A stretch of 64,000 bases of DNA from Candidatus Parcubacteria bacterium (GCA_023130975.1 JAGMAD010000003.1:129692-193691), one strand, 5' to 3'. Counted from the stretch's first letter, positions 2,652 to 57,048 are shown. Notes: generated by a model from the letters alone, not told the origin. Numbers and translations are program-made.

Positions 2652-3580
2652 TGACAAAGAAAATGATAATCTTAAAAAGATATATTAAAAATCCTATTCT
2701 TAAACCGATAAAAAACCATCATTGGGAAGAATACGTTTACAATTGTGCTGCAATAATCTTGGATAATAAGGTTCATATAGTTTATAGAGCTTTAAGCAGA
2801 GATAAAATATCAAGGCTTGGTTATGCATCAAGTAAAGATGGTTTTAAAATTGATGAAAGGTTAGAGAAACCAATTTTTGTCCCAGAATTAGAATCTGAAA
2901 AGCCAATGGTAAAGTTCAATAATTCTGGTATTGAAGACCCGAGATTAACAAGGATTGGTGACAGAATTTATATGCTTTATGCCGGCCTAAATGGTAGAAC
3001 AGCTCAATCATCTATGGCTTCTATTAAAGTTGAGGATTTTTTACAAAAGAAATGGAATTGGAAAAGGCATGGGGTTCTTTTCCCAAATATTGACGATAGA
3101 AATGCAGGTTTATTTCCAGAAAAGATAAATGGTAAATATGTCCTTTATACAAGGTTTATGCCAAATATTTGGGTAAGTTATTCAAGGGATTTGAAAAACT
3201 GGTCAAGGCCAAAAATAGTAATGAAACCAAGAAAAGGGATGTGGGATGAATACAAAATTGGCATAGCTGGACCTCCTCTAAGATTGAATAATTCTTGGCT
3301 ATTGATTTATCATGGAGTTGAACAAAAGCAAGCCGGAAGATTTGGAAGAGTCTACAGATTAGGATTCGCTTTAATAGACCTTAAAGACCCGGAAAAAATT
3401 TTATATAGATGTGAAAAACCAATTTTTGAACCAGTCAAGAATTATGAATTAAAAGGACAAGTTCCAAATGTGGTTTTTTCATGTGCTGCTGTTATTAAGG
3501 GAAAGACACTTTTTGTTTATTATGGTGGTGCCGACACTGTAATAGGGGTAGCTACTGCAGACATTTCTAAGCTTCTTTGA
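2651..3580 (+). CDS. GH130/DUF377-like glycosidase-related protein
   Basis: GIEDPRLTRIGDRIYMLYAG and overall beta-propeller-like composition are typical of DUF377/GH130. Confidence 0.45.
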   Translation: MTKKMIILKRYIKNPILKPIKNHHWEEYVYNCAAIILDNKVHIVYRALSRDKISRLGYASSKDGFKIDERLEKPIFVPELESEKPMVKFNNSGIEDPRLTRIGDRIYMLYAGLNGRTAQSSMASIKVEDFLQKKWNWKRHGVLFPNIDDRNAGLFPEKINGKYVLYTRFMPNIWVSYSRDLKNWSRPKIVMKPRKGMWDEYKIGIAGPPLRLNNSWLLIYHGVEQKQAGRFGRVYRLGFALIDLKDPEKILYRCEKPIFEPVKNYELKGQVPNVVFSCAAVIKGKTLFVYYGGADTVIGVATADISKLL

Positions 3581-17020: not shown

Positions 17021-17391
17021 ATGCCTAATCAAAATTTTTCTAAATTTCATCATATTGTAGCGGTAACATGCTTAATAGAGAATAATGGGCGTTTTTTATT
17101 AATAAAAAGGAGCTCCAAAGAAGATTATTATGGTGGAAAATGGGTTTTTCCAGGAGGGAAGGTAGAAAGAGAAGAAGACGTAATCCAGACGTTACTTAGA
17201 GAAATAAAAGAAGAAACCGGGCTTGAAACTCAAAGAAAAGTCGCTTTTTAAGGAGTTATTCATTTTCAAGAAAAGATGGTTCCTCAACAACTGGTTTGGT
17301 ATTTTGTCTAAAGTATAAAAGCGGTAAGATAAAACTTGATAAAAATTCAGAAGATTTTGCATGGATTCTACCAGAAGAGATTTATAATTAA
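17021..17391 (+). pseudogene. NUDIX hydrolase with a frameshift (likely at the T-run near 17243-17248)
   Basis: Nudix box GGKVEREEDVIQTLLREIKEETGL in frame 2 ends at 17251. The C-terminal part (LVFCLKYKSGKIKLDKNSEDFAWILPEEIYN) continues in frame 1 to 17391. Confidence 0.5.
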
Positions 17392-17556
17392 GATACTATG
17401 CCCGGCATAGAAACACATATTAAGAATGCCCAGGAGGCAATTCAGAGAAATCTTTTTATGGACATTAAAAAACTTTCAAGAAGTGTCTAATTTGTAGGCA
17501 GTCAAACCCTTTTTTCGGGGTTGATTTTTTGAGAGAAGTTTGCTAATATAAAATAT

Positions 17557-17790
17557 ATGGCAACTTTATCTAAAAACTTAATAGTATCTAAAGAATTCAT
17601 TCAAAAAAGAGGAATGGTTTTTTTGCCTTTGGCGGAATATGAGAAAATAAAAGAAAAAATAGAAAGATTAGAAAGAGAAAGAAAATTTTCACAAGAGGAA
17701 GCAGAGATCCTAAGAATTATTGCGGAGGGAGAGAGAGAATATAAAGAAGGGAAATTAAAGCCGATAAAGTCCTTAGCCGAGATTAAATAA
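17557..17790 (+). CDS. putative antitoxin of a type II TA pair
   Basis: 77-aa coiled/charged protein that ends 2 nt before the RelE/ParE-like toxin gene. Confidence 0.4.
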   Translation: MATLSKNLIVSKEFIQKRGMVFLPLAEYEKIKEKIERLERERKFSQEEAEILRIIAEGEREYKEGKLKPIKSLAEIK

Positions 17791-17792
17791 TT

Positions 17793-18050
17793 ATGATTAT
17801 TTATCCAACTTCCCGATTTAGAAAATCTTTTAAGAAATTGCCGAGCACCATACAGAAAAAGGCTAAATTGAGAGACAAAATATTTAGGAAAGATCCTTTT
17901 GCTTTAAATCTTCAAACTCATAAACTTAAAGGCAAACTAAAAGATTACTGGGCATATTCGGTTAACGATGATTATCGCGTTCTCTTCCGTTTTATAAATG
18001 AAGACAGCGCGATTTATTTTAATATCGGTACCCATGAGATTTATAAATAA
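17793..18050 (+). CDS. RelE/ParE (YafQ-like) type II toxin
   Basis: HKLKGKLKDYWAYSVNDDYRVLFRF ... IGTHEIY pattern typical of RelE/ParE. Confidence 0.65.
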   Translation: MIIYPTSRFRKSFKKLPSTIQKKAKLRDKIFRKDPFALNLQTHKLKGKLKDYWAYSVNDDYRVLFRFINEDSAIYFNIGTHEIYK

Positions 18051-18090
18051 AAAATTTGATTTTTTTGGAGAAGTTTGTTAAAGTAAAAAT

Positions 18091-18384
18091 ATGAGTTTAG
18101 ATGAAATCAAAAATTTAATAAAAATAGATGGGGGAAAGTTTATTATAGTGGAAAATGGGGAACCAGTATTAATGGTAATGAGTTTTGATGACTATAAAAA
18201 AATAATAGGGAATTCTGAAAAAATTTCTTCGCAACAGTCAAATTCTAATTCTGAAAAAGAAATCCCAGGAGCTCAAGAAGTTCAAGAATTTAATTCAGGG
18301 AGCGATAACGAATATGCAGAAACAGTTGAAAAAGCATCTCCCCAAACCGAGGAATCATTAAAAATTGAGGATTTGCCAGTTTGA
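18091..18384 (+). CDS. Phd/YefM-like antitoxin domain protein (orphan)
   Basis: N-terminal GEPVLMVMSFDDYKKI matches the Phd/YefM fold signature. The C-terminal half is acidic and low-complexity. Confidence 0.5.
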   Translation: MSLDEIKNLIKIDGGKFIIVENGEPVLMVMSFDDYKKIIGNSEKISSQQSNSNSEKEIPGAQEVQEFNSGSDNEYAETVEKASPQTEESLKIEDLPV

Positions 18385-18470
18385 TTTAGATAATAGATAA
18401 TAGATGATAGATAAGTATTGACATAATTCTTTTATTTTATTACCATTAAAATATACAAAAATTAAAAAAT

Positions 18471-18599
18471 ATATAAAATAAAGATTTAGATAATAGAGAT
18501 TAGAATTTAGGTAATTTTTTATCTAACATCTAACATCTAATATCTAAAATCCAATTATGGCTGAGAAAGAAAAATTTGAAAGAGGAAAAACCCATCTTA
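18471..18599 (+). repeat. copy A of a 129-bp perfect duplication (tuf promoter, leader and first 14 codons)
   Basis: Identical to 19688-19816. Confidence 0.85.
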
Positions 18600-19627
18600 T
18601 AGGTTTAGTTTTAGCATTCATTATAACTATATTTATCTTTAATAGTTTTTATAGTACAATTTTTGCAGAAGATTCTTCATTAGAAAATATCTTCGCTCTC
18701 GTTACAATTGGAGATATAATCCAGAATCAATCACTATATGAAGGAAAGATTGTAACTATTTCTGGTAAATATGGTGGTTGGGGGCACAAAGAAGGAAACA
18801 TTCCCGGATGTGAGAGTGGACCACCAGTAACCAGAAGTGATTGGTGTATCTATGACGAAACTGGTTGTATTTATGTAGCAGGAGCGGAAATTTTAGAGTG
18901 TGGTGAATATACAACTGAGATAGACATCTATAAATATTGCTTTAATAACTTTGACCCTTCTGGAGGAGAAAGTATGGGTACTGATATGATAATAAAAGGA
19001 AGAGTTAAGATTAGCGATAAAGGTGTTACTTATGTAGGAAGAATAGTATCTCCAGTTAAACCTATTGAAATAGTAATACCAGAAGATAAAATGCCAAAAG
19101 AAATACAAGATGCAACGATAAAGTCAGTTACAATTAAACCTGGAGAGCCAATCAGAGTAAAAGCAGAGCGAGAAGAAGACGGGAAGATTATAAAAGATGT
19201 AACAGTGACTGAATATGAATCACCAATTAAACTAAATCTGACAACTAAAGATGGCTTAAAAGAAGTCGTTGTAAGGCAAGGAACGGATGAGCTAAAATTG
19301 ATTTCCAAAAATGTAACTGCAAGAACTAAAAATGAATTAGAAGTAGAAGAGGACACAATATACTTAAAGACAAAAACAGGGAGAAAAGAAATTAAGATAA
19401 TGCCTGATGTTGCATCACAAAAAGCAATAGAGAAACAAGAATTACACTATGTAGAAAGTATTGAACTTAAGGATGTTGGTAAGCCCATTTATGAAGTTAA
19501 TGGAGTTAAAAAAGTAAAATTATTATGGTTTATTCCAATTGACATGAGCATAAAAACAGAAATAGATGCTGAAACGGGAAAAGTTGAAAAGATTAAAAAG
19601 CCTTGGTGGAGTTTCTTAGCTTGGTAA
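18557..19627 (+). CDS. chimeric ORF: EF-Tu N-terminal 14 aa fused to a TM-anchored extracytoplasmic beta-rich protein
   Basis: The first 43 nt are identical to tuf ([14 protein letters not shown]). A TM helix and a ~320-aa Lys/Glu/Val-rich domain of unknown function follow. Confidence 0.5.
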   Translation: MAEKEKFERGKTHLIGLVLAFIITIFIFNSFYSTIFAEDSSLENIFALVTIGDIIQNQSLYEGKIVTISGKYGGWGHKEGNIPGCESGPPVTRSDWCIYDETGCIYVAGAEILECGEYTTEIDIYKYCFNNFDPSGGESMGTDMIIKGRVKISDKGVTYVGRIVSPVKPIEIVIPEDKMPKEIQDATIKSVTIKPGEPIRVKAEREEDGKIIKDVTVTEYESPIKLNLTTKDGLKEVVVRQGTDELKLISKNVTARTKNELEVEEDTIYLKTKTGRKEIKIMPDVASQKAIEKQELHYVESIELKDVGKPIYEVNGVKKVKLLWFIPIDMSIKTEIDAETGKVEKIKKPWWSFLAW

Positions 19628-19687
19628 ATTCAACTTAGATAGGGCATTTCTTAAATTAACAAAGAATATAAAATAGAATATAAAATA

Positions 19688-19816
19688 GAATATAAAATAA
19701 AGATTTAGATAATAGAGATTAGAATTTAGGTAATTTTTTATCTAACATCTAACATCTAATATCTAAAATCCAATTATGGCTGAGAAAGAAAAATTTGAAA
19801 GAGGAAAAACCCATCT
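19688..19816 (+). repeat. copy B of the 129-bp duplication (native tuf promoter/5' end)
   Basis: Identical to 18471-18599. It is preceded by 3x AATATAAAATAG tandem repeats. Confidence 0.85.
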
Positions 19817-20975
19817 TAATATTGGTACTATTGGTCACGTAGACCATGGTAAAACCACTCTTACAGCAGCTATTCTGCATGTTTTAAGGTTAAAAGGTCT
19901 TAAGGCATCAGAGAAAGCAGTGGAGCAAATTGATTCTGCTCCAGAAGAAAAAGCCCGTGGTTTAACTATTAACATTGCCCATTTAGAGTATGAGACAGAT
20001 AAAAGACACTATGCTCATATTGATTGTCCGGGCCATGCTGATTACATTAAGAATATGGTTACTGGTGCCGCTCAAATGGACGGAGCAATTTTAGTGGTTT
20101 CGGCTGCTGATGGTGTTATGCCTCAAACCAGAGAGCATATTTTGCTTGCTCGCCAAGTAGGATTATCTCAAATAGTGGTGTTTTTAAATAAATGCGATAC
20201 TGTAGATGATCCTGAGATAATTGATTTAGTTGAGTCAGAAGTAAAAGAGCTTTTAAAGAAATACGAATTTCCAGGAGATGAAATCCCAATTGTTCGCGGT
20301 TCAGCTCTTAAAGCCCTGGATGTAAAATCAGCTGACGATGAAGCCGCCAAACCAATTTTGGATTTAGTTAAAGCAGTAGATGATTACTTTCCTGAACCAA
20401 CTCGGGATATTGATAAACCATTTTTAATGGCTGTTGAGGATGTTTTCTCTATTGCTGGAAGAGGAACTGTTGCTACTGGCAGGATTGAGCGAGGAATAGT
20501 TCATCCAAACGATGAGGTAGAAATTGTTGGTTTTAAACCTACTCAAAAAACAGTGGCAGTGAGCGTGGAAATGTTTAATAAGATGCTTGATGAAGGAAGA
20601 GCCGGTGATAATGTCGGAATTTTACTTCGCGGACTCAAGAAAGAAGAGGTGGAAAGAGGACAAGTTTTAGCAAACCCCGGCAGCATTACTCCTCATACTG
20701 AATTTGACGGTGAAATTTATGTTTTAACCAAAGAAGAAGGCGGAAGACATTCTCCTTTTTTTGCCGGTTATAAGCCGCAATTTTACATTCGAACTACTGA
20801 TGTTACTGGAGATGTTGCTTTGCCAGAAGGGACAGAAATGGTTATGCCTGGAGATACTGTTAATCTAAAAGTTAAATTAATAGCTCCGGTTGCCCTTCAA
20901 GAAAAACAAAGATTTGCTATAAGAGAAGGAGGCAAGACCGTAGGCGCAGGAGTAGTGACGAAGATCATTAAGTAA
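19776..20975 (+). CDS. tuf: elongation factor Tu
   Basis: [18 protein letters not shown] and NKCD motifs; 399 aa. Confidence 0.9.
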
Positions 20976-24223: not shown

Positions 24224-24346
24224 AATAAATTTTCAATTTTCAATTTTCAATTTTCAATGAATTTTCAATGATTTAATTTTCAATTAGAAATTAAAGAATT
24301 AGAAATTTAATAGAAATTAGAAATTAGAAATTAGAAATTTTGGATT
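24224..24346. repeat. heptamer tandem-repeat spacer: (TTTTCAA)n then (AGAAATT)n
   Basis: Reverse-complement arrangement of the 22108-22216 element. Confidence 0.6.
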
Positions 24347-25196: not shown

Positions 25197-25274
25197 CTAA
25201 ATAGATATTAAATGATGGATTATAGATGTTAGTTAATTATCTAAAATCTAAAATCTAATATCTAAAATCTAACT

Positions 25275-27999: not shown

Positions 28000-28550
28000 T
28001 TAAACTAAAAGACAAATATATTAAAGAAGTAGTGCCGGCTATGAAAAAAAAGTTTGAATACAAGAACAGTATGGCTGTTCCTAAAATTGAGAAAGTAGTG
28101 ATTAATAATAGTTTTGGCAGAATGATAATAGATAAAACATCTGATGAGAAAAAAAAAATTAAAGAAGCAATTATACAGGATTTGTCTTTAATCTGCGGTC
28201 AGCGTCCAGTTTTAACTAAAGCAAAGAAGTCCATTTCTACTTTTAAAGTTCGTCAAGGTATGGAAATTGGGGCAAAAGTTACTTTGAGAAAGAAAAAAAT
28301 GTATGATTTCTTAGATAGGTTAATTCATATTACTCTTCCTCGCTCTCGTGATTTTCGAGGTATTGACCCTAAATCAATTGATGAAAAAGGAAATTTAACC
28401 ATCGCTATCAAAGAACATATTTCTTTTCCAGAAGTATCGCCAGAGAAGACAAGGTTTCTTTTTGGATTTGAAATAACTGTGGTGACTACTGCCAAAGATA
28501 AAAAACAGGGATTAGAATTATTAAAATTGTTGGGATTCCCGATTAAATAG
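27996..28550 (+). CDS. rplE: 50S ribosomal protein L5
   Basis: L5 pattern. The start overlaps the rplX stop (ATGA). Confidence 0.8.
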   Translation: MIKLKDKYIKEVVPAMKKKFEYKNSMAVPKIEKVVINNSFGRMIIDKTSDEKKKIKEAIIQDLSLICGQRPVLTKAKKSISTFKVRQGMEIGAKVTLRKKKMYDFLDRLIHITLPRSRDFRGIDPKSIDEKGNLTIAIKEHISFPEVSPEKTRFLFGFEITVVTTAKDKKQGLELLKLLGFPIK

Positions 28551-28644
28551 ATATTAGATGATAGATTATAGATTATGGATAATAGATGATGAAAAATAAA
28601 AATCCAAAATCCAACATCTAATATCCAACATCTAAAATCCAATT

Positions 28645-50181: not shown

Positions 50182-50283
50182 AAAGATGAAAGAAATAAGG
50201 AAAGTTCTTTGAAAATTTTTAGATTAAGAATTGAGTAAATTTAATTGGTTTTTTAGAGTTGTCCCGATTTTATTTGAGAGTTC

Positions 50284-50315
<32 letters not shown>

Positions 50316-50707
50316 GATAAGGCATGCAAGTCGAGGGGTCACCTTCGGGTGGCACCGGCAAACGGGTTAGTAACACGTGGATACATACCCTAAAGACTCG
50401 TATAACTCGGAGAAATCCGAGCTAATTCGAGATAGTCTGGTAGTCTATTTTTGGAAGTCAACTATAAGAATTTTTAATTTTCAATTTCTAATTTTTATTT
50501 AATTTCTAATTTTCAATGTTTAAAAAGCAACCCTACGGGGAATCCCGAACTTCATTCGGTCTAGAAATCATTAAAAATTTATTAAAAATTAAGAATTAGA
50601 AATTAGAAATTTTCTGCGTATTTAATAATAGATAAAGTTGATTTTTAGGAATAGGCTACCAGTAAAGGTTATACTTTGTATTTCCGCTTTGGGACTGGTC
50701 CGCGGCT

Positions 50708-50743
<36 letters not shown>

Positions 50744-52018
50744 GATGACGAGTAGGGGGCATGAGAGTGTGTTCCCCAACAATGGTACTGAGAACGGACC
50801 ATACTCCTACGGGAGGCAGCAGTCGAGAATATTGGGCAATGGGCGAAAGCCTGACCCAGCGACGCCGCGTGCGGGAAGAAGGTCTTCGGATTGTAAACCG
50901 CTTTTATTAAGGAACAATCCGCCAGTCGGCGGATGAGCGTACTTGATGAATAAGGAGCCGCTAATCACGTGCCAGAAGCGTCGGTAATACGTGAGCTCCA
51001 AGCGTTATCCGGATTTATTGGGCGTAAAGCGTCCGTAGGCGGTTTGAAAAGTCTTTGGTTAAATCCTAGGGCTTAACCTTTGGACTGTCAAAGATACTTT
51101 CAGACTAGAGGGTGTTAGAGGCTGATGGAACGGTCGGTGTAGGGGTGAAATCCGTTGATATCGACCGGAACACCGAAAGCGAAGGCATTCAGCTAGTGCA
51201 ACCCTGACGCTGAGGGACGAAAGCGTGGGTAGCGAATGGGATTAGATACCCCAGTAGTCCACGCTGTAAACTATGGACACTAGCTATTGGTAGTGTCGAC
51301 CCTATCAGTGGCGAAGCTAACGCGTTAAGTGTCCCGCCTGGGAAGTACGAGCGCAAGCTTAAAACTCAAAGGAATAGACGGGGACTCACACAAGCGGTGG
51401 ATCATGTGGCTCAATTCGACGATAAACGAAGAACCTCACCAGGGCTTGACATGCTAGTGAAATCCCGACGAAAGTTGGGACTACCCACAAGGACACTAGC
51501 ACAGGTGCTGCATGGTTGTCGTCAGCAGGTGTCGTGAGACGCTCCTTTTAATAGGGAAACCTGCGCAACCCTTGCCCTATGTTTTACTTGTCATAGGGGA
51601 CTGCCCGGGATAACTGGGAGGAAGGTGAGGATAACGCCAAATCAGCATGGCCCTTTGATGCCCTGGGCTGCACACATGATACAATGGCCGGTACAATGGG
51701 CTGCTTAACCGCAAGGCGAAGCAAATCCCTTAAAGCCGGTCCCAGTTCGGATTGAGGTCTGCAACTCGACCTCATGAAGCCGGAATCGCTAGTAATCGCC
51801 AATCAGCTATGTGGCGATGAATATGTTCCTGAGTCTTGTACTCACTGCCCGTCACACCAAGAGAGCTGGCAGTACCCGAAACCCCCCACCACTTTTCGTG
51901 AAGATATTTAGATTAAGAAGAATTTTTGAAAAAGTCTATTTTAAATTCTTTTGACGGTTTATAATTCATGAAAAGTGGTGGGGGGCTAAGGTAAGGTCAG
52001 TAATATGGGTGAAGTCGT

Positions 52019-52821
52019 AGATGTAATCTACTTGTTGCGACTCTTGAAAGGCAACTTTCAGGAAAAAACTTGGCTATATGCTGGAACATCTGTGTTATAA
52101 TAGAGTAATATGAGTAAAAGTTTATACGCAGACAATCAGCAGGGAAGTCTCCGCCAGCTGGCGGATGACCCCTCAGAGACTACACGCCGAGCCCCTCTTT
52201 CTAAAAGAGAAATTCAATCTTATTTTCTTGGAGCTATACATGATGGAACATTTAGTAGTAATCAAAGATTTCGAATTTCACAGAAAGGTACCCAATGGCT
52301 TAAATTTTTACAAAAACTTTTTGGCAAACTCGGTTACAATTCATGGATTTATAAAGAAGGTAAAAACAGAAAAGTTTATGTGTTAGAAACTTTAGCAGAT
52401 TTTTTAGATTTCAGATTTGATCCTTCGCGATTAAATACAAAAGAAGAAAAGATTGGTTACATAAAAGGATTTTTCGATGCCGAAGGTGGCATTCCTAGAG
52501 ATCACAAAGCAAGATTTTATATTCAGTTGACCCAGAATGATGAAGAAAAGCTCAAAAAATTAAAAGTAATGCTTAGTGATTTAGGAATAAAAACAGGAAA
52601 AATTCATAACCCAAGCCAAAAAGTAGATCCTGATTATTGGAGAATGTATGTTTTAGCAGGTTCACAAAAAACATTCGTAGAAAAAATAGGATCATGGCAT
52701 CCAAGAAAGATAAGAACCTTGAATCAAAGATTCAAGAACCTTGATTCCTTCGGGATTAAAAATTTTAGAAAAGAGGGTGAAGATATAGTCCATGCTCTAT
52801 AGCGATATAGGGACAAATATG
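52019..52821 (+). mobile_element. group I-type intron in the 16S gene (between E. coli-equivalent U1498 and A1499)
   Basis: The 5' exon ends ...GAAGTCGT, the intron ends with G, and the 3' exon resumes AACAAGG. The intron carries a LAGLIDADG ORF. Confidence 0.65.
52110..52802 (+). CDS. LAGLIDADG homing endonuclease (intron-encoded)
   Basis: Two LAGLIDADG-like motifs, FLGAIHDGTF and IKGFFDAEGGI. Confidence 0.7.
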   Translation: MSKSLYADNQQGSLRQLADDPSETTRRAPLSKREIQSYFLGAIHDGTFSSNQRFRISQKGTQWLKFLQKLFGKLGYNSWIYKEGKNRKVYVLETLADFLDFRFDPSRLNTKEEKIGYIKGFFDAEGGIPRDHKARFYIQLTQNDEEKLKKLKVMLSDLGIKTGKIHNPSQKVDPDYWRMYVLAGSQKTFVEKIGSWHPRKIRTLNQRFKNLDSFGIKNFRKEGEDIVHAL

Positions 52822-56926: not shown

Positions 56927-57048
56927 CCTTTTGCTTCGCAAAAGGAATTTCTAATTTCTAATTTCCAATCAATTTCTAATTTTCATTGAAAATTCTAAAA
57001 TTGAAAATTTAATGAAAATTGAAAATTGAAAATTGAAAATTAAATTTT
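56927..57048. repeat. terminator-like hairpin plus heptamer spacer: (AATTTCT)n then (ATTGAAA)n
   Basis: ccttttgc-ttcg-caaaagg followed by 7-bp periodic repeats. Confidence 0.55.

Follow-up and report, generated by a model that had tools for sequence, protein, structure and literature searches.

A predicted exported PepSY-like protein begins with the first codons of EF-Tu at a duplicated tuf start in a Parcubacteria bacterium

In a 64,000-nt stretch of DNA from Candidatus Parcubacteria bacterium (GCA_023130975.1 JAGMAD010000003.1:129692-193691; hereafter, the window), the gene for elongation factor Tu (EF-Tu), tuf, is preceded by an open reading frame (ORF) of 356 codons, ORF356, whose first 14 codons are those of tuf itself. 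The window has a GC content of 34% and comes from an uncultivated, ultrasmall Parcubacteria/Paceibacteria-type bacterium of the candidate phyla radiation (CPR); tuf and ORF356 are part of its ribosomal-protein (str-S10) gene cluster. Along the cluster, rpsL, rpsG and fusA are followed by a frameshifted NUDIX gene, a 77-aa gene together with a RelE/YafQ-like toxin gene, a Phd-like gene, ORF356, tuf, rpsJ, and rplC onward. The closest relatives of this tuf are found in one Nealsonbacteria and one Minisyncoccales metagenome-assembled genome. The features on which the analysis bears are as follows.

18091..18384, plus strand: small Phd-like gene, conserved to the left of tuf in every related lineage
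18418..18446, plus strand: promoter-like TTGACA-17-TACCAT, scoring 10/12 in a consensus scan; its position matches that of TTGAC...TAATAGAAT in relatives
18471..18599, plus strand: repeat copy A, with the -10-like TATAAAAT, the hairpin of the leader, the ATG, the first 14 tuf codons and 1 nt more; opens the chimeric ORF; exactly identical to copy B
18485..18548, plus strand: leader hairpin A, with TTAGAT / ATCTAA heptamer-type arms; identical to hairpin B
18557..19627, plus strand: chimeric ORF of 356 aa, with EF-Tu residues 1-14, a hydrophobic h-region, an OB-like domain, a beta-rich linker, a PepSY-like domain and the end KKPWWSFLAW
18557..18667, plus strand: predicted Sec signal peptide (aa 1-37), from sequence inspection, hydropathy, a modelled helix at residues 3-32 and analogy with native homologues of the sister allele
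18689..19051, plus strand: Cys-containing, OB-like N-terminal domain (about aa 45-165), modelled at low confidence
19418..19594, plus strand: PepSY-like C-terminal domain (aa 288-346), from a Pfam near-match and a fold model
19628..19689, plus strand: 3′ flank of the insert, common to the sister allele, with 12-nt units AATATAAAATAG starting at 19665, 19677 and 19689
19690..19818, plus strand: repeat copy B, the leader and start of authentic tuf; exactly identical to copy A
19704..19767, plus strand: leader hairpin B; 8 nt separate its end from the tuf ATG
19776..20975, plus strand: tuf, intact (EF-Tu, 399 aa; Pfam GTP_EFTU, D2 and D3)

The two copies of the tuf start form a direct repeat that is exact over 129 bp (18471-18599 and 19690-19818, an offset of 1219). 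It comprises 86 nt 5′ of the ATG, the ATG with 14 tuf codons, and 1 extra nt. A reading of this DNA made from the sequence alone had reported such a duplication. Its existence and length held, but that reading had placed copy B at 19688-19816, which is off by 2 nt and not identical to copy A as written. None of the 20-mers of the repeat occurs again in the 64 kb, and the repeat is therefore far beyond chance.

Could a collapsed or misjoined repeat have created a fusion that exists in no cell? The length of the repeat, which is near that of reads and k-mers, invites the suspicion, as does a strain contig (L004) that begins inside the repeat. However, the exact 356-aa protein is present on five public contigs from separate assemblies, of lengths from 20-50 kb up to 0.2-1 Mb, with like neighbours. 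Three independent Logan contigs (k = 31), from three sequencing runs, all end at window position 18500. By this point, exactly 30 nt (k-1) of the repeat have been entered, and 18470 is where the last unique 31-mer begins. Such an ending is what a de Bruijn graph gives when a true repeat is entered from two different left flanks. Moreover, a related lineage (L002/L003) with a like architecture has a repeat of only 39 nt and was assembled identically from two samples; since 39 nt is too short to confuse an assembler, the sister architecture also backs the reality of the locus. The duplication is thus real, as had been claimed, and an assembly artefact is effectively excluded.

Contig L004 was also considered as a test of homogenisation between the copies and was uninformative, its two differences in copy A falling at the contig end. 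It is nearly identical to the window over 3.8 kb, except that positions 1444-1570 differ from window 19955-20081 by 11 substitutions, every one of them at a third codon position, clustered in 127 nt of tuf. Either a diverged tuf contributed a short recombination tract here, or the patch is a consensus of mixed strains.

From copy B, the reading frame continues into a protein of ~400 aa with the three EF-Tu Pfam domains (E = 1.5e-63, 3.3e-19 and 1.6e-37), encoded in the str/S10 cluster after fusA; it is thus identified as EF-Tu. The gene that starts in copy A resembles EF-Tu at residues 1-14 only, with no EF-Tu domain after them. Copy A is in frame with the remainder of ORF356, and no in-frame ATG, GTG or TTG lies between the tuf ATG and the hydrophobic segment. 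The tuf ATG is therefore the sole plausible start of ORF356, and the chimeric N-terminus proposed earlier is borne out.

The sequence-only reading had taken the hydrophobic segment of ORF356 for a transmembrane helix that anchors the protein in the membrane. To us, it looks like a cleavable Sec signal peptide. By inspection, the segment shows features of a type I signal: an n-region consisting of the EF-Tu tail (4 K/R and 3 D/E in residues 1-14), an h-region, IGLVLAFIITIFIF, of ~15 residues, and a c-region, NSFYSTIFA, with I-F-A/E-D at -3/-1 (the slash marks the cleavage point). Cleavage is predicted after A37, before ED, which would give the mature N-terminus EDSSLENIFALVTIGDIIQNQSLYEGK. A lipoprotein (type II) lipobox, L-x-x-C, is not present at the end of the h-region, the first Cys being residue 85. 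The protein of the sister allele, P0006, is laid out likewise (...VINA/DMG...YPQITEQ), and its native homologues, which start MMKNK...VNA/QVSEYPQITE, have their predicted cleavage site at the aligned VNA/Q. Because both alleles share this layout, the junction appears to stand at the boundary between n- and h-regions, with EF-Tu residues replacing the usual MKK n-region.

Is the upstream gene foreign to the locus? Its composition gave no sign of it: the GC content of ORF356 (32.8%, vs. 34% for the window) and its GC at third codon positions are like those of the host, and foreignness by composition, as suggested in the earlier "foreign-looking", is ruled out. In four related lineages, tuf directly follows the Phd-like gene, with no gene between: Nealsonbacteria CSMAG_2411 (L038), Minisyncoccales MFD13423 (L020), Parcubacteria GCA_023131895.1 from the same sample series (L104-L107) and Parcubacteria DG_74_2 (L108/L109). 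In each of them, a conserved promoter, TTGAC...TAATAGAAT, and a leader with a tandem-heptamer hairpin occupy the gap. A scan of GTDB species genomes and JGI metagenomes for the EF-Tu start-coding pattern yielded 34 + 50 further Paceibacteria-type tuf loci. With up to 8 mismatches tolerated in a second copy, none of these 84 loci had a second tuf start or a member of the ORF356 family, and all were ordinary tuf genes except for one truncated copy (L065). An exact 29-mer scan of the JGI metagenomes had no match. The uninserted relatives and the 84 empty loci thus mark ORF356 as an insertion, and the ancestral order, as read from these sequences, is Phd-like gene, tuf promoter, hairpin leader, tuf.

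The most instructive comparison was with L002 and L003, in which a different family member, the 287-aa P0006, stands between the Phd-like gene and tuf. P0006 has 13 EF-Tu residues, its own hydrophobic segment and the same KKPWWSFLAW end as ORF356. It is fused after tuf codon 13 and so has a tuf-derived start of 39 nt. The region upstream of P0006 matches the ancestral tuf promoter at 39/39 nt in L038 and 36/38 nt in L020, which upholds, for the sister allele, the earlier claim that the fusion gene stands behind the tuf promoter. The P0006 start also keeps the ancestral Thr codon ACT (found in L038, L020 and L107 as well), whereas the downstream tuf of L002 has ACC. From the promoter and this codon it follows that tuf originally started at the upstream copy and that the downstream leader and start came, or arose, with the insert. 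The downstream tuf of L002 is preceded by an ATCTAA-type leader and by a 3′ flank as in the window, with one AATATAAAATAG unit fewer.

Between the window and L002, the gene bodies are ~55-64% identical, which is to say essentially unalignable; from ~45 nt before the stop codon, through flank and leader and into tuf, identity is 96%. A neighbour-joining tree of the first 855 nt of tuf places the window and L002 in one clade (91% bootstrap), sister to L038 and L020. The tuf genes of the two lineages are 7% diverged. The duplication had been called very recent. This fits the perfect identity of the leaders only, as the fusion itself is common to lineages with tuf genes this far apart.

The 12-nt unit AATATAAAATAG, each copy of which carries the -10-like TATAAAAT, occurs three times 5′ of tuf in the window (19665-19700) and twice in L002 (1367-1390). 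Its copy number could tune promoter spacing.

What, then, does ORF356 encode? The sequence-only reading had assigned the protein to no known family. Searches of a collection of 15 billion proteins yielded 45 and 56 homologues, and on sequence ORF356 belongs to an unnamed exported "PWWSFLA" family that is widespread in CPR bacteria and in DPANN/Altiarchaeales-type archaea. We define the family by a signal peptide, a variable module and a domain at the extreme C-terminus (I-K-I-M-P...ELKE...IDAETGE...KPWWSFLA). In an alignment of 51 sequences, P349, W350 and W351 are invariant. Residues 288-346 match PepSY (PF03413) with 23.3 bits (E = 7.9e-5), below the gathering cut-off of 24, and 24 of the 51 family members match it at E<=0.01. 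Structure prediction modelled the C-terminal domain at high confidence (predicted local distance difference test, pLDDT, >90) with a PepSY/cystatin-like fold, i.e., a helix packed on an antiparallel sheet; the mature part also has a beta-rich section besides the OB-like N-terminal domain. The similarity to the PepSY proteins YpmB, YpeB and the M4 protease propeptide (PDB 2gu3, 5boi, 3nqy) is marginal, just under the Pfam cut-off, and the invariant C-terminal PWW together with variable Cys-rich or OB-like N-terminal modules sets the PWWSFLA proteins apart as a distinct CPR/DPANN family. A sequence search of the PDB and a search of NCBIfam returned nothing useful for ORF356. The role of the family is presumably an exported one, at the cell surface or extracellular.

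Homologues with starts of their own do exist. We read the N-terminus of every family protein recovered, 99 in total: ORF356 (P0001) and P0006 alone have an EF-Tu start, and each of the other 97 has its own MKK-type signal peptide. Two archaeal-type contigs present the family gene, then a spacer of ~343-345 nt, then an aminoacyl-tRNA synthetase gene: that for phenylalanyl-tRNA synthetase (PheRS) in L089 (spacer 2656-3000) and that for aspartyl-tRNA synthetase (AspRS) in L096 (4829-5171). No repeats, and so no sharing of an N-terminus, were found between the family gene and these downstream housekeeping genes.

The family also appears to have crossed between domains. The mature coding part of P0006 (L002 462-1325) has 82.5% DNA identity, across 713 nt, to the family gene of the archaeal-type contig (L089 1858-2655), and the identity begins exactly at the mature N-terminus, YPQITEQ. 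On that contig, the PheRS alpha gene 3′ of the family gene is of archaeal size, and a close homologue is annotated as Altiarchaeales; the family gene, at 35.5% GC, is richer in AT than the DNA on either side of it (41.2% GC). These sequences suggest a recent transfer between archaea and CPR bacteria of the P0006 cargo without its signal peptide. In Andersenbacteria (L093 and L095, 2096-4756), the family member P0069 adjoins a large serine recombinase (Resolvase/Recombinase/Zn_ribbon_recom) whose gene abuts a tRNA gene, which suggests that P0069 is carried on an integrated mobile element.

We scrutinized the leader with respect to transcription and initiation. The earlier reading had the new gene capture the tuf promoter; this stands for the -10-like box and the leader hairpin, both within the 129 bp, but a whole promoter is not demonstrable there, and the -35 regions differ. 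Upstream of copy A, TTGACA-17-TACCAT is possibly a remnant of the ancestral tuf promoter, with weak homology; 5′ of copy B, TTAACA-17-TATAAA was found by eye. No terminator was predicted on the plus strand between ORF356 and tuf. The 64-nt hairpin folds with -22.6 kcal/mol (z = -4.7). Hairpins of the same design with different repeat motifs precede tuf in L038, L020, L104 and L108, and P0006 in L002; the structure is thus conserved while its sequence turns over. Neither leader nor flanks matched an Rfam family. A search for the ATCTAA leader or the 3′ flank in relatives had no match; the only other matches were heptamer hairpins at other places in this ribosomal-protein cluster. Within the window, long AT-rich tandem-heptamer hairpins also occur 5′ of rpsC and at three other intergenic sites (intervals 24227-24340, 25239-25272, 28547-28642 and 56946-57041); such hairpins are often just 5′ of ribosomal-protein genes and tuf, and their repeat motif changes from site to site. 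They may be a lineage-specific element of the 5′ untranslated region or of RNA processing.

A Shine-Dalgarno (SD)-like motif was seen in 2 of 30 genes. Presumably, initiation here depends on the leader and the A/G-rich early codons; as these would form the initiation region, "leader plus first codons" would be a natural unit to capture or keep. ORF356 may be expressed at a high, tuf-like level.

Taken together, the most economical history is probably a single insertion in the common ancestor of the window and L002, followed by replacement of the gene body. DNA would have entered the extreme 5′ end of tuf, in frame, after codon 13/14. The insert would have comprised the gene for an exported PepSY-like protein lacking its own start, ~60 nt of flank, a new ATCTAA leader and a second tuf start. 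The original, upstream tuf start would now initiate the foreign protein, with tuf itself expressed from the downstream copy, so that the duplicated start made the insertion harmless. The flexible, Lys/Arg-containing N-terminal tail of EF-Tu would thereby have become the n-region of a Sec signal peptide; signal peptidase would remove it, and the mature exported protein would carry no EF-Tu residues. Since the fusion gene of L002 has the ancestral leader and its tuf the ATCTAA leader, a later B-to-A transfer best accounts for the perfect identity in the window: here, gene conversion or recombination would have copied the tuf leader onto the upstream gene, which would yield the 129-bp repeat and give both genes the same hairpin and initiation region. 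The bounds of the transfer would be the end of homology at codon 14 on the right and the last 12-nt AATATAAAATAG-type unit on the left. The body differs completely between the lineages and would hence have been replaced later, in L002 from a gene like that of the archaeal-type contig. We assign this history, of one ancestral insertion followed by body replacement and leader copying, a probability of about 0.68.

Several points weigh against it. The clade is supported by a single gene, over 855 nt. Between the alleles, the breakpoint shifts by 4 nt (after codon 13 in L002 vs. codon 14 + 1 nt in the window), and L002 has GGG in both copies of the start where the window has GGA in both. With these differences, a single ancestral insertion needs both a body replacement and a short conversion, and the pattern is compatible with independent or repeated events, for which we leave room. 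No donor with the cassette beside an ATCTAA leader was found. On the side of the protein, confidence in the modelled N-terminal domain is low (pLDDT 32-70), the n-region has a net charge of just +1, which is little for a signal peptide, and both the use of the tuf ATG and the cleavage of the signal peptide in ORF356 are predictions.

Several bacteria express variable surface proteins from a dedicated site: Mycoplasma vsa/vlp, Neisseria pilE/pilS and Borrelia vlsE are systems of this kind. Like them, the present locus combines one fixed promoter and 5′ coding end, including the start of a signal peptide, with alternative gene bodies. Might the tuf start, then, be a fixed expression site for exchangeable exported PepSY-like cassettes, swapped between one arm in tuf codons 1-13 and another formed by the leader and the KKPWWSFLAW end? 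In that case, the two alleles would possibly stem from ongoing exchange or independent insertions rather than one old event, with some genes crossing the boundary between bacteria and archaea. Two unrelated bodies between near-identical arms, sharp jumps in identity at both ends, and breakpoints that are not the same but 4 nt apart speak for such an exchange. So do the 82.5% DNA identity of the mature part of P0006 to the archaeal-contig gene, an 18-nt stretch at the 3′ end, CCTTGGTGGAGTTTCTTA, that the window gene shares with the archaeal gene, and the link between the family and a serine recombinase by a tRNA in Andersenbacteria. However, only two alleles turned up in a collection of 15 billion proteins, and they belong to different lineages, not to one genome as in the known systems. 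Unlike in those systems, no silent cassettes were found in the window or the 84 related loci (nor paralogues of the ORF, by tblastn in the 64 kb), no recombination sites were found, and neither the genes called round the locus nor 20 further ORFs scanned in the window include a recombinase, integrase or transposase. Arms of 39-45 nt are also short for RecA-type recombination. We therefore consider an expression site unlikely, though it is the alternative to be taken most seriously.

The repeat might instead be the att-site duplication left by a small mobile element that integrates site-specifically at the 5′ end of tuf and brings a replacement start, much as integrative elements do at the ends of tRNA genes; direct repeats do flank a 1.2-kb unit that restores its target gene and a family member sits beside a serine recombinase and tRNA in another phylum. 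We judge this highly improbable: the unit is one gene only, the scan just described met no enzyme that could move it, and none of the other tuf loci scanned is occupied. Nor would an att duplication be expected to measure 129 nt in the window but 39 nt in L002, where the leaders differ. Somewhat less remote, yet still improbable, is a non-functional by-product, in which a partial duplication of the tuf start was joined to a decaying foreign gene. That the expression of ORF356 is itself a prediction, and that the NUDIX gene nearby (17021-17390) is frameshifted and so decaying, would suit such an origin. Yet each allele is a long, uninterrupted ORF (356 and 287 aa) read in frame from the tuf ATG, with well-formed h- and c-regions and the invariant P349, W350 and W351; the C-terminal domain is confidently modelled; and the arrangement has persisted across the 7%-diverged tuf lineages.

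Other features of the window deserve mention. The NUDIX hydrolase gene is split by its frameshift into 76 aa in one frame and a C-terminal part (...GLVFCLKYKSGKIKLDKNSEDFAWILPEEIYN) in another; it is either a pseudogene or a sequencing error. Between it and the Phd-like gene, a near-consensus extended -10 promoter (TTGATT-17-TGCTAATAT) is present in two 85%-identical copies, at 17521-17553 and 18056-18088, with the 77-aa gene and the RelE/YafQ-like toxin gene between them (17557-18050). In L038 and L020, this promoter stands 5′ of the Phd-like gene. The 77-aa/toxin unit looks like a second insertion in the fusA-tuf gap, one that duplicated the promoter of the downstream gene. Farther along, the 16S rRNA match in the region 50270-52802 spans 1768 nt vs. 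a 1533-nt model, hence contains insertions, and a LAGLIDADG homing-endonuclease ORF (52110-52802) follows directly after it, as is typical of CPR rRNA operons.

The nearest known kinds of event are the birth of chimeric genes by capture of a 5′ end and gene conversion of tuf. Chimeric genes that arose by partial duplication or illegitimate recombination, taking the promoter and first codons of another gene, are described in eukaryotes (PMC3449122), with an example from Drosophila (PMC1463047). As there, a regulatory region and N-terminal codons derive from a neighbour while the parent stays intact; here, however, the setting is the bacterial str-S10 cluster, the donor is the essential tuf, and the peptide apparently has a second use as the n-region of a signal peptide. 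Gene conversion between tufA and tufB accounts for the concerted evolution of duplicated tuf in Salmonella and E. coli (PMC5485169). Here, too, non-reciprocal recombination probably keeps or renders two stretches of tuf sequence alike within one genome, but the copies in those species are full-length, functional genes, whereas here only 129 bp (leader and 14 codons) are duplicated, the second copy heading an unrelated exported protein. The tuf promoter has been used in the laboratory to express foreign membrane proteins in mollicutes (PMC4392738); there, too, tuf expression signals drive a foreign exported or membrane protein, albeit from an engineered plasmid rather than from a natural, chromosomal, in-frame fusion. 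The literature searches that we made found no published description of such a tuf-start fusion. What is new here is that the opening codons of an essential gene apparently serve as the n-region of a signal peptide, that a duplicated start rescues the parent, and that the cargo seems to cross domains.

We thus view the locus as an instructive natural experiment, not a new class of system. With the "before" state kept in sister lineages, it shows a new gene gaining a start codon, an initiation region and apparently part of an export signal by inserting among the opening codons of a highly expressed, essential gene, which is left undamaged. It may also shed light on initiation in an SD-poor genome, where the leader plus early codons may be a unit worth copying. 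If the tuf start does serve as an expression site, ultrasmall episymbionts would be putting new surface proteins under their strongest expression signals, with the EF-Tu tail as a disposable n-region. Finally, this exported family, apparently exchanged in recent times, is common to DPANN/Altiarchaeales-type archaea and CPR bacteria. Both are thought to live attached to other cells, and the family is therefore a candidate for a part in cell-surface interaction.

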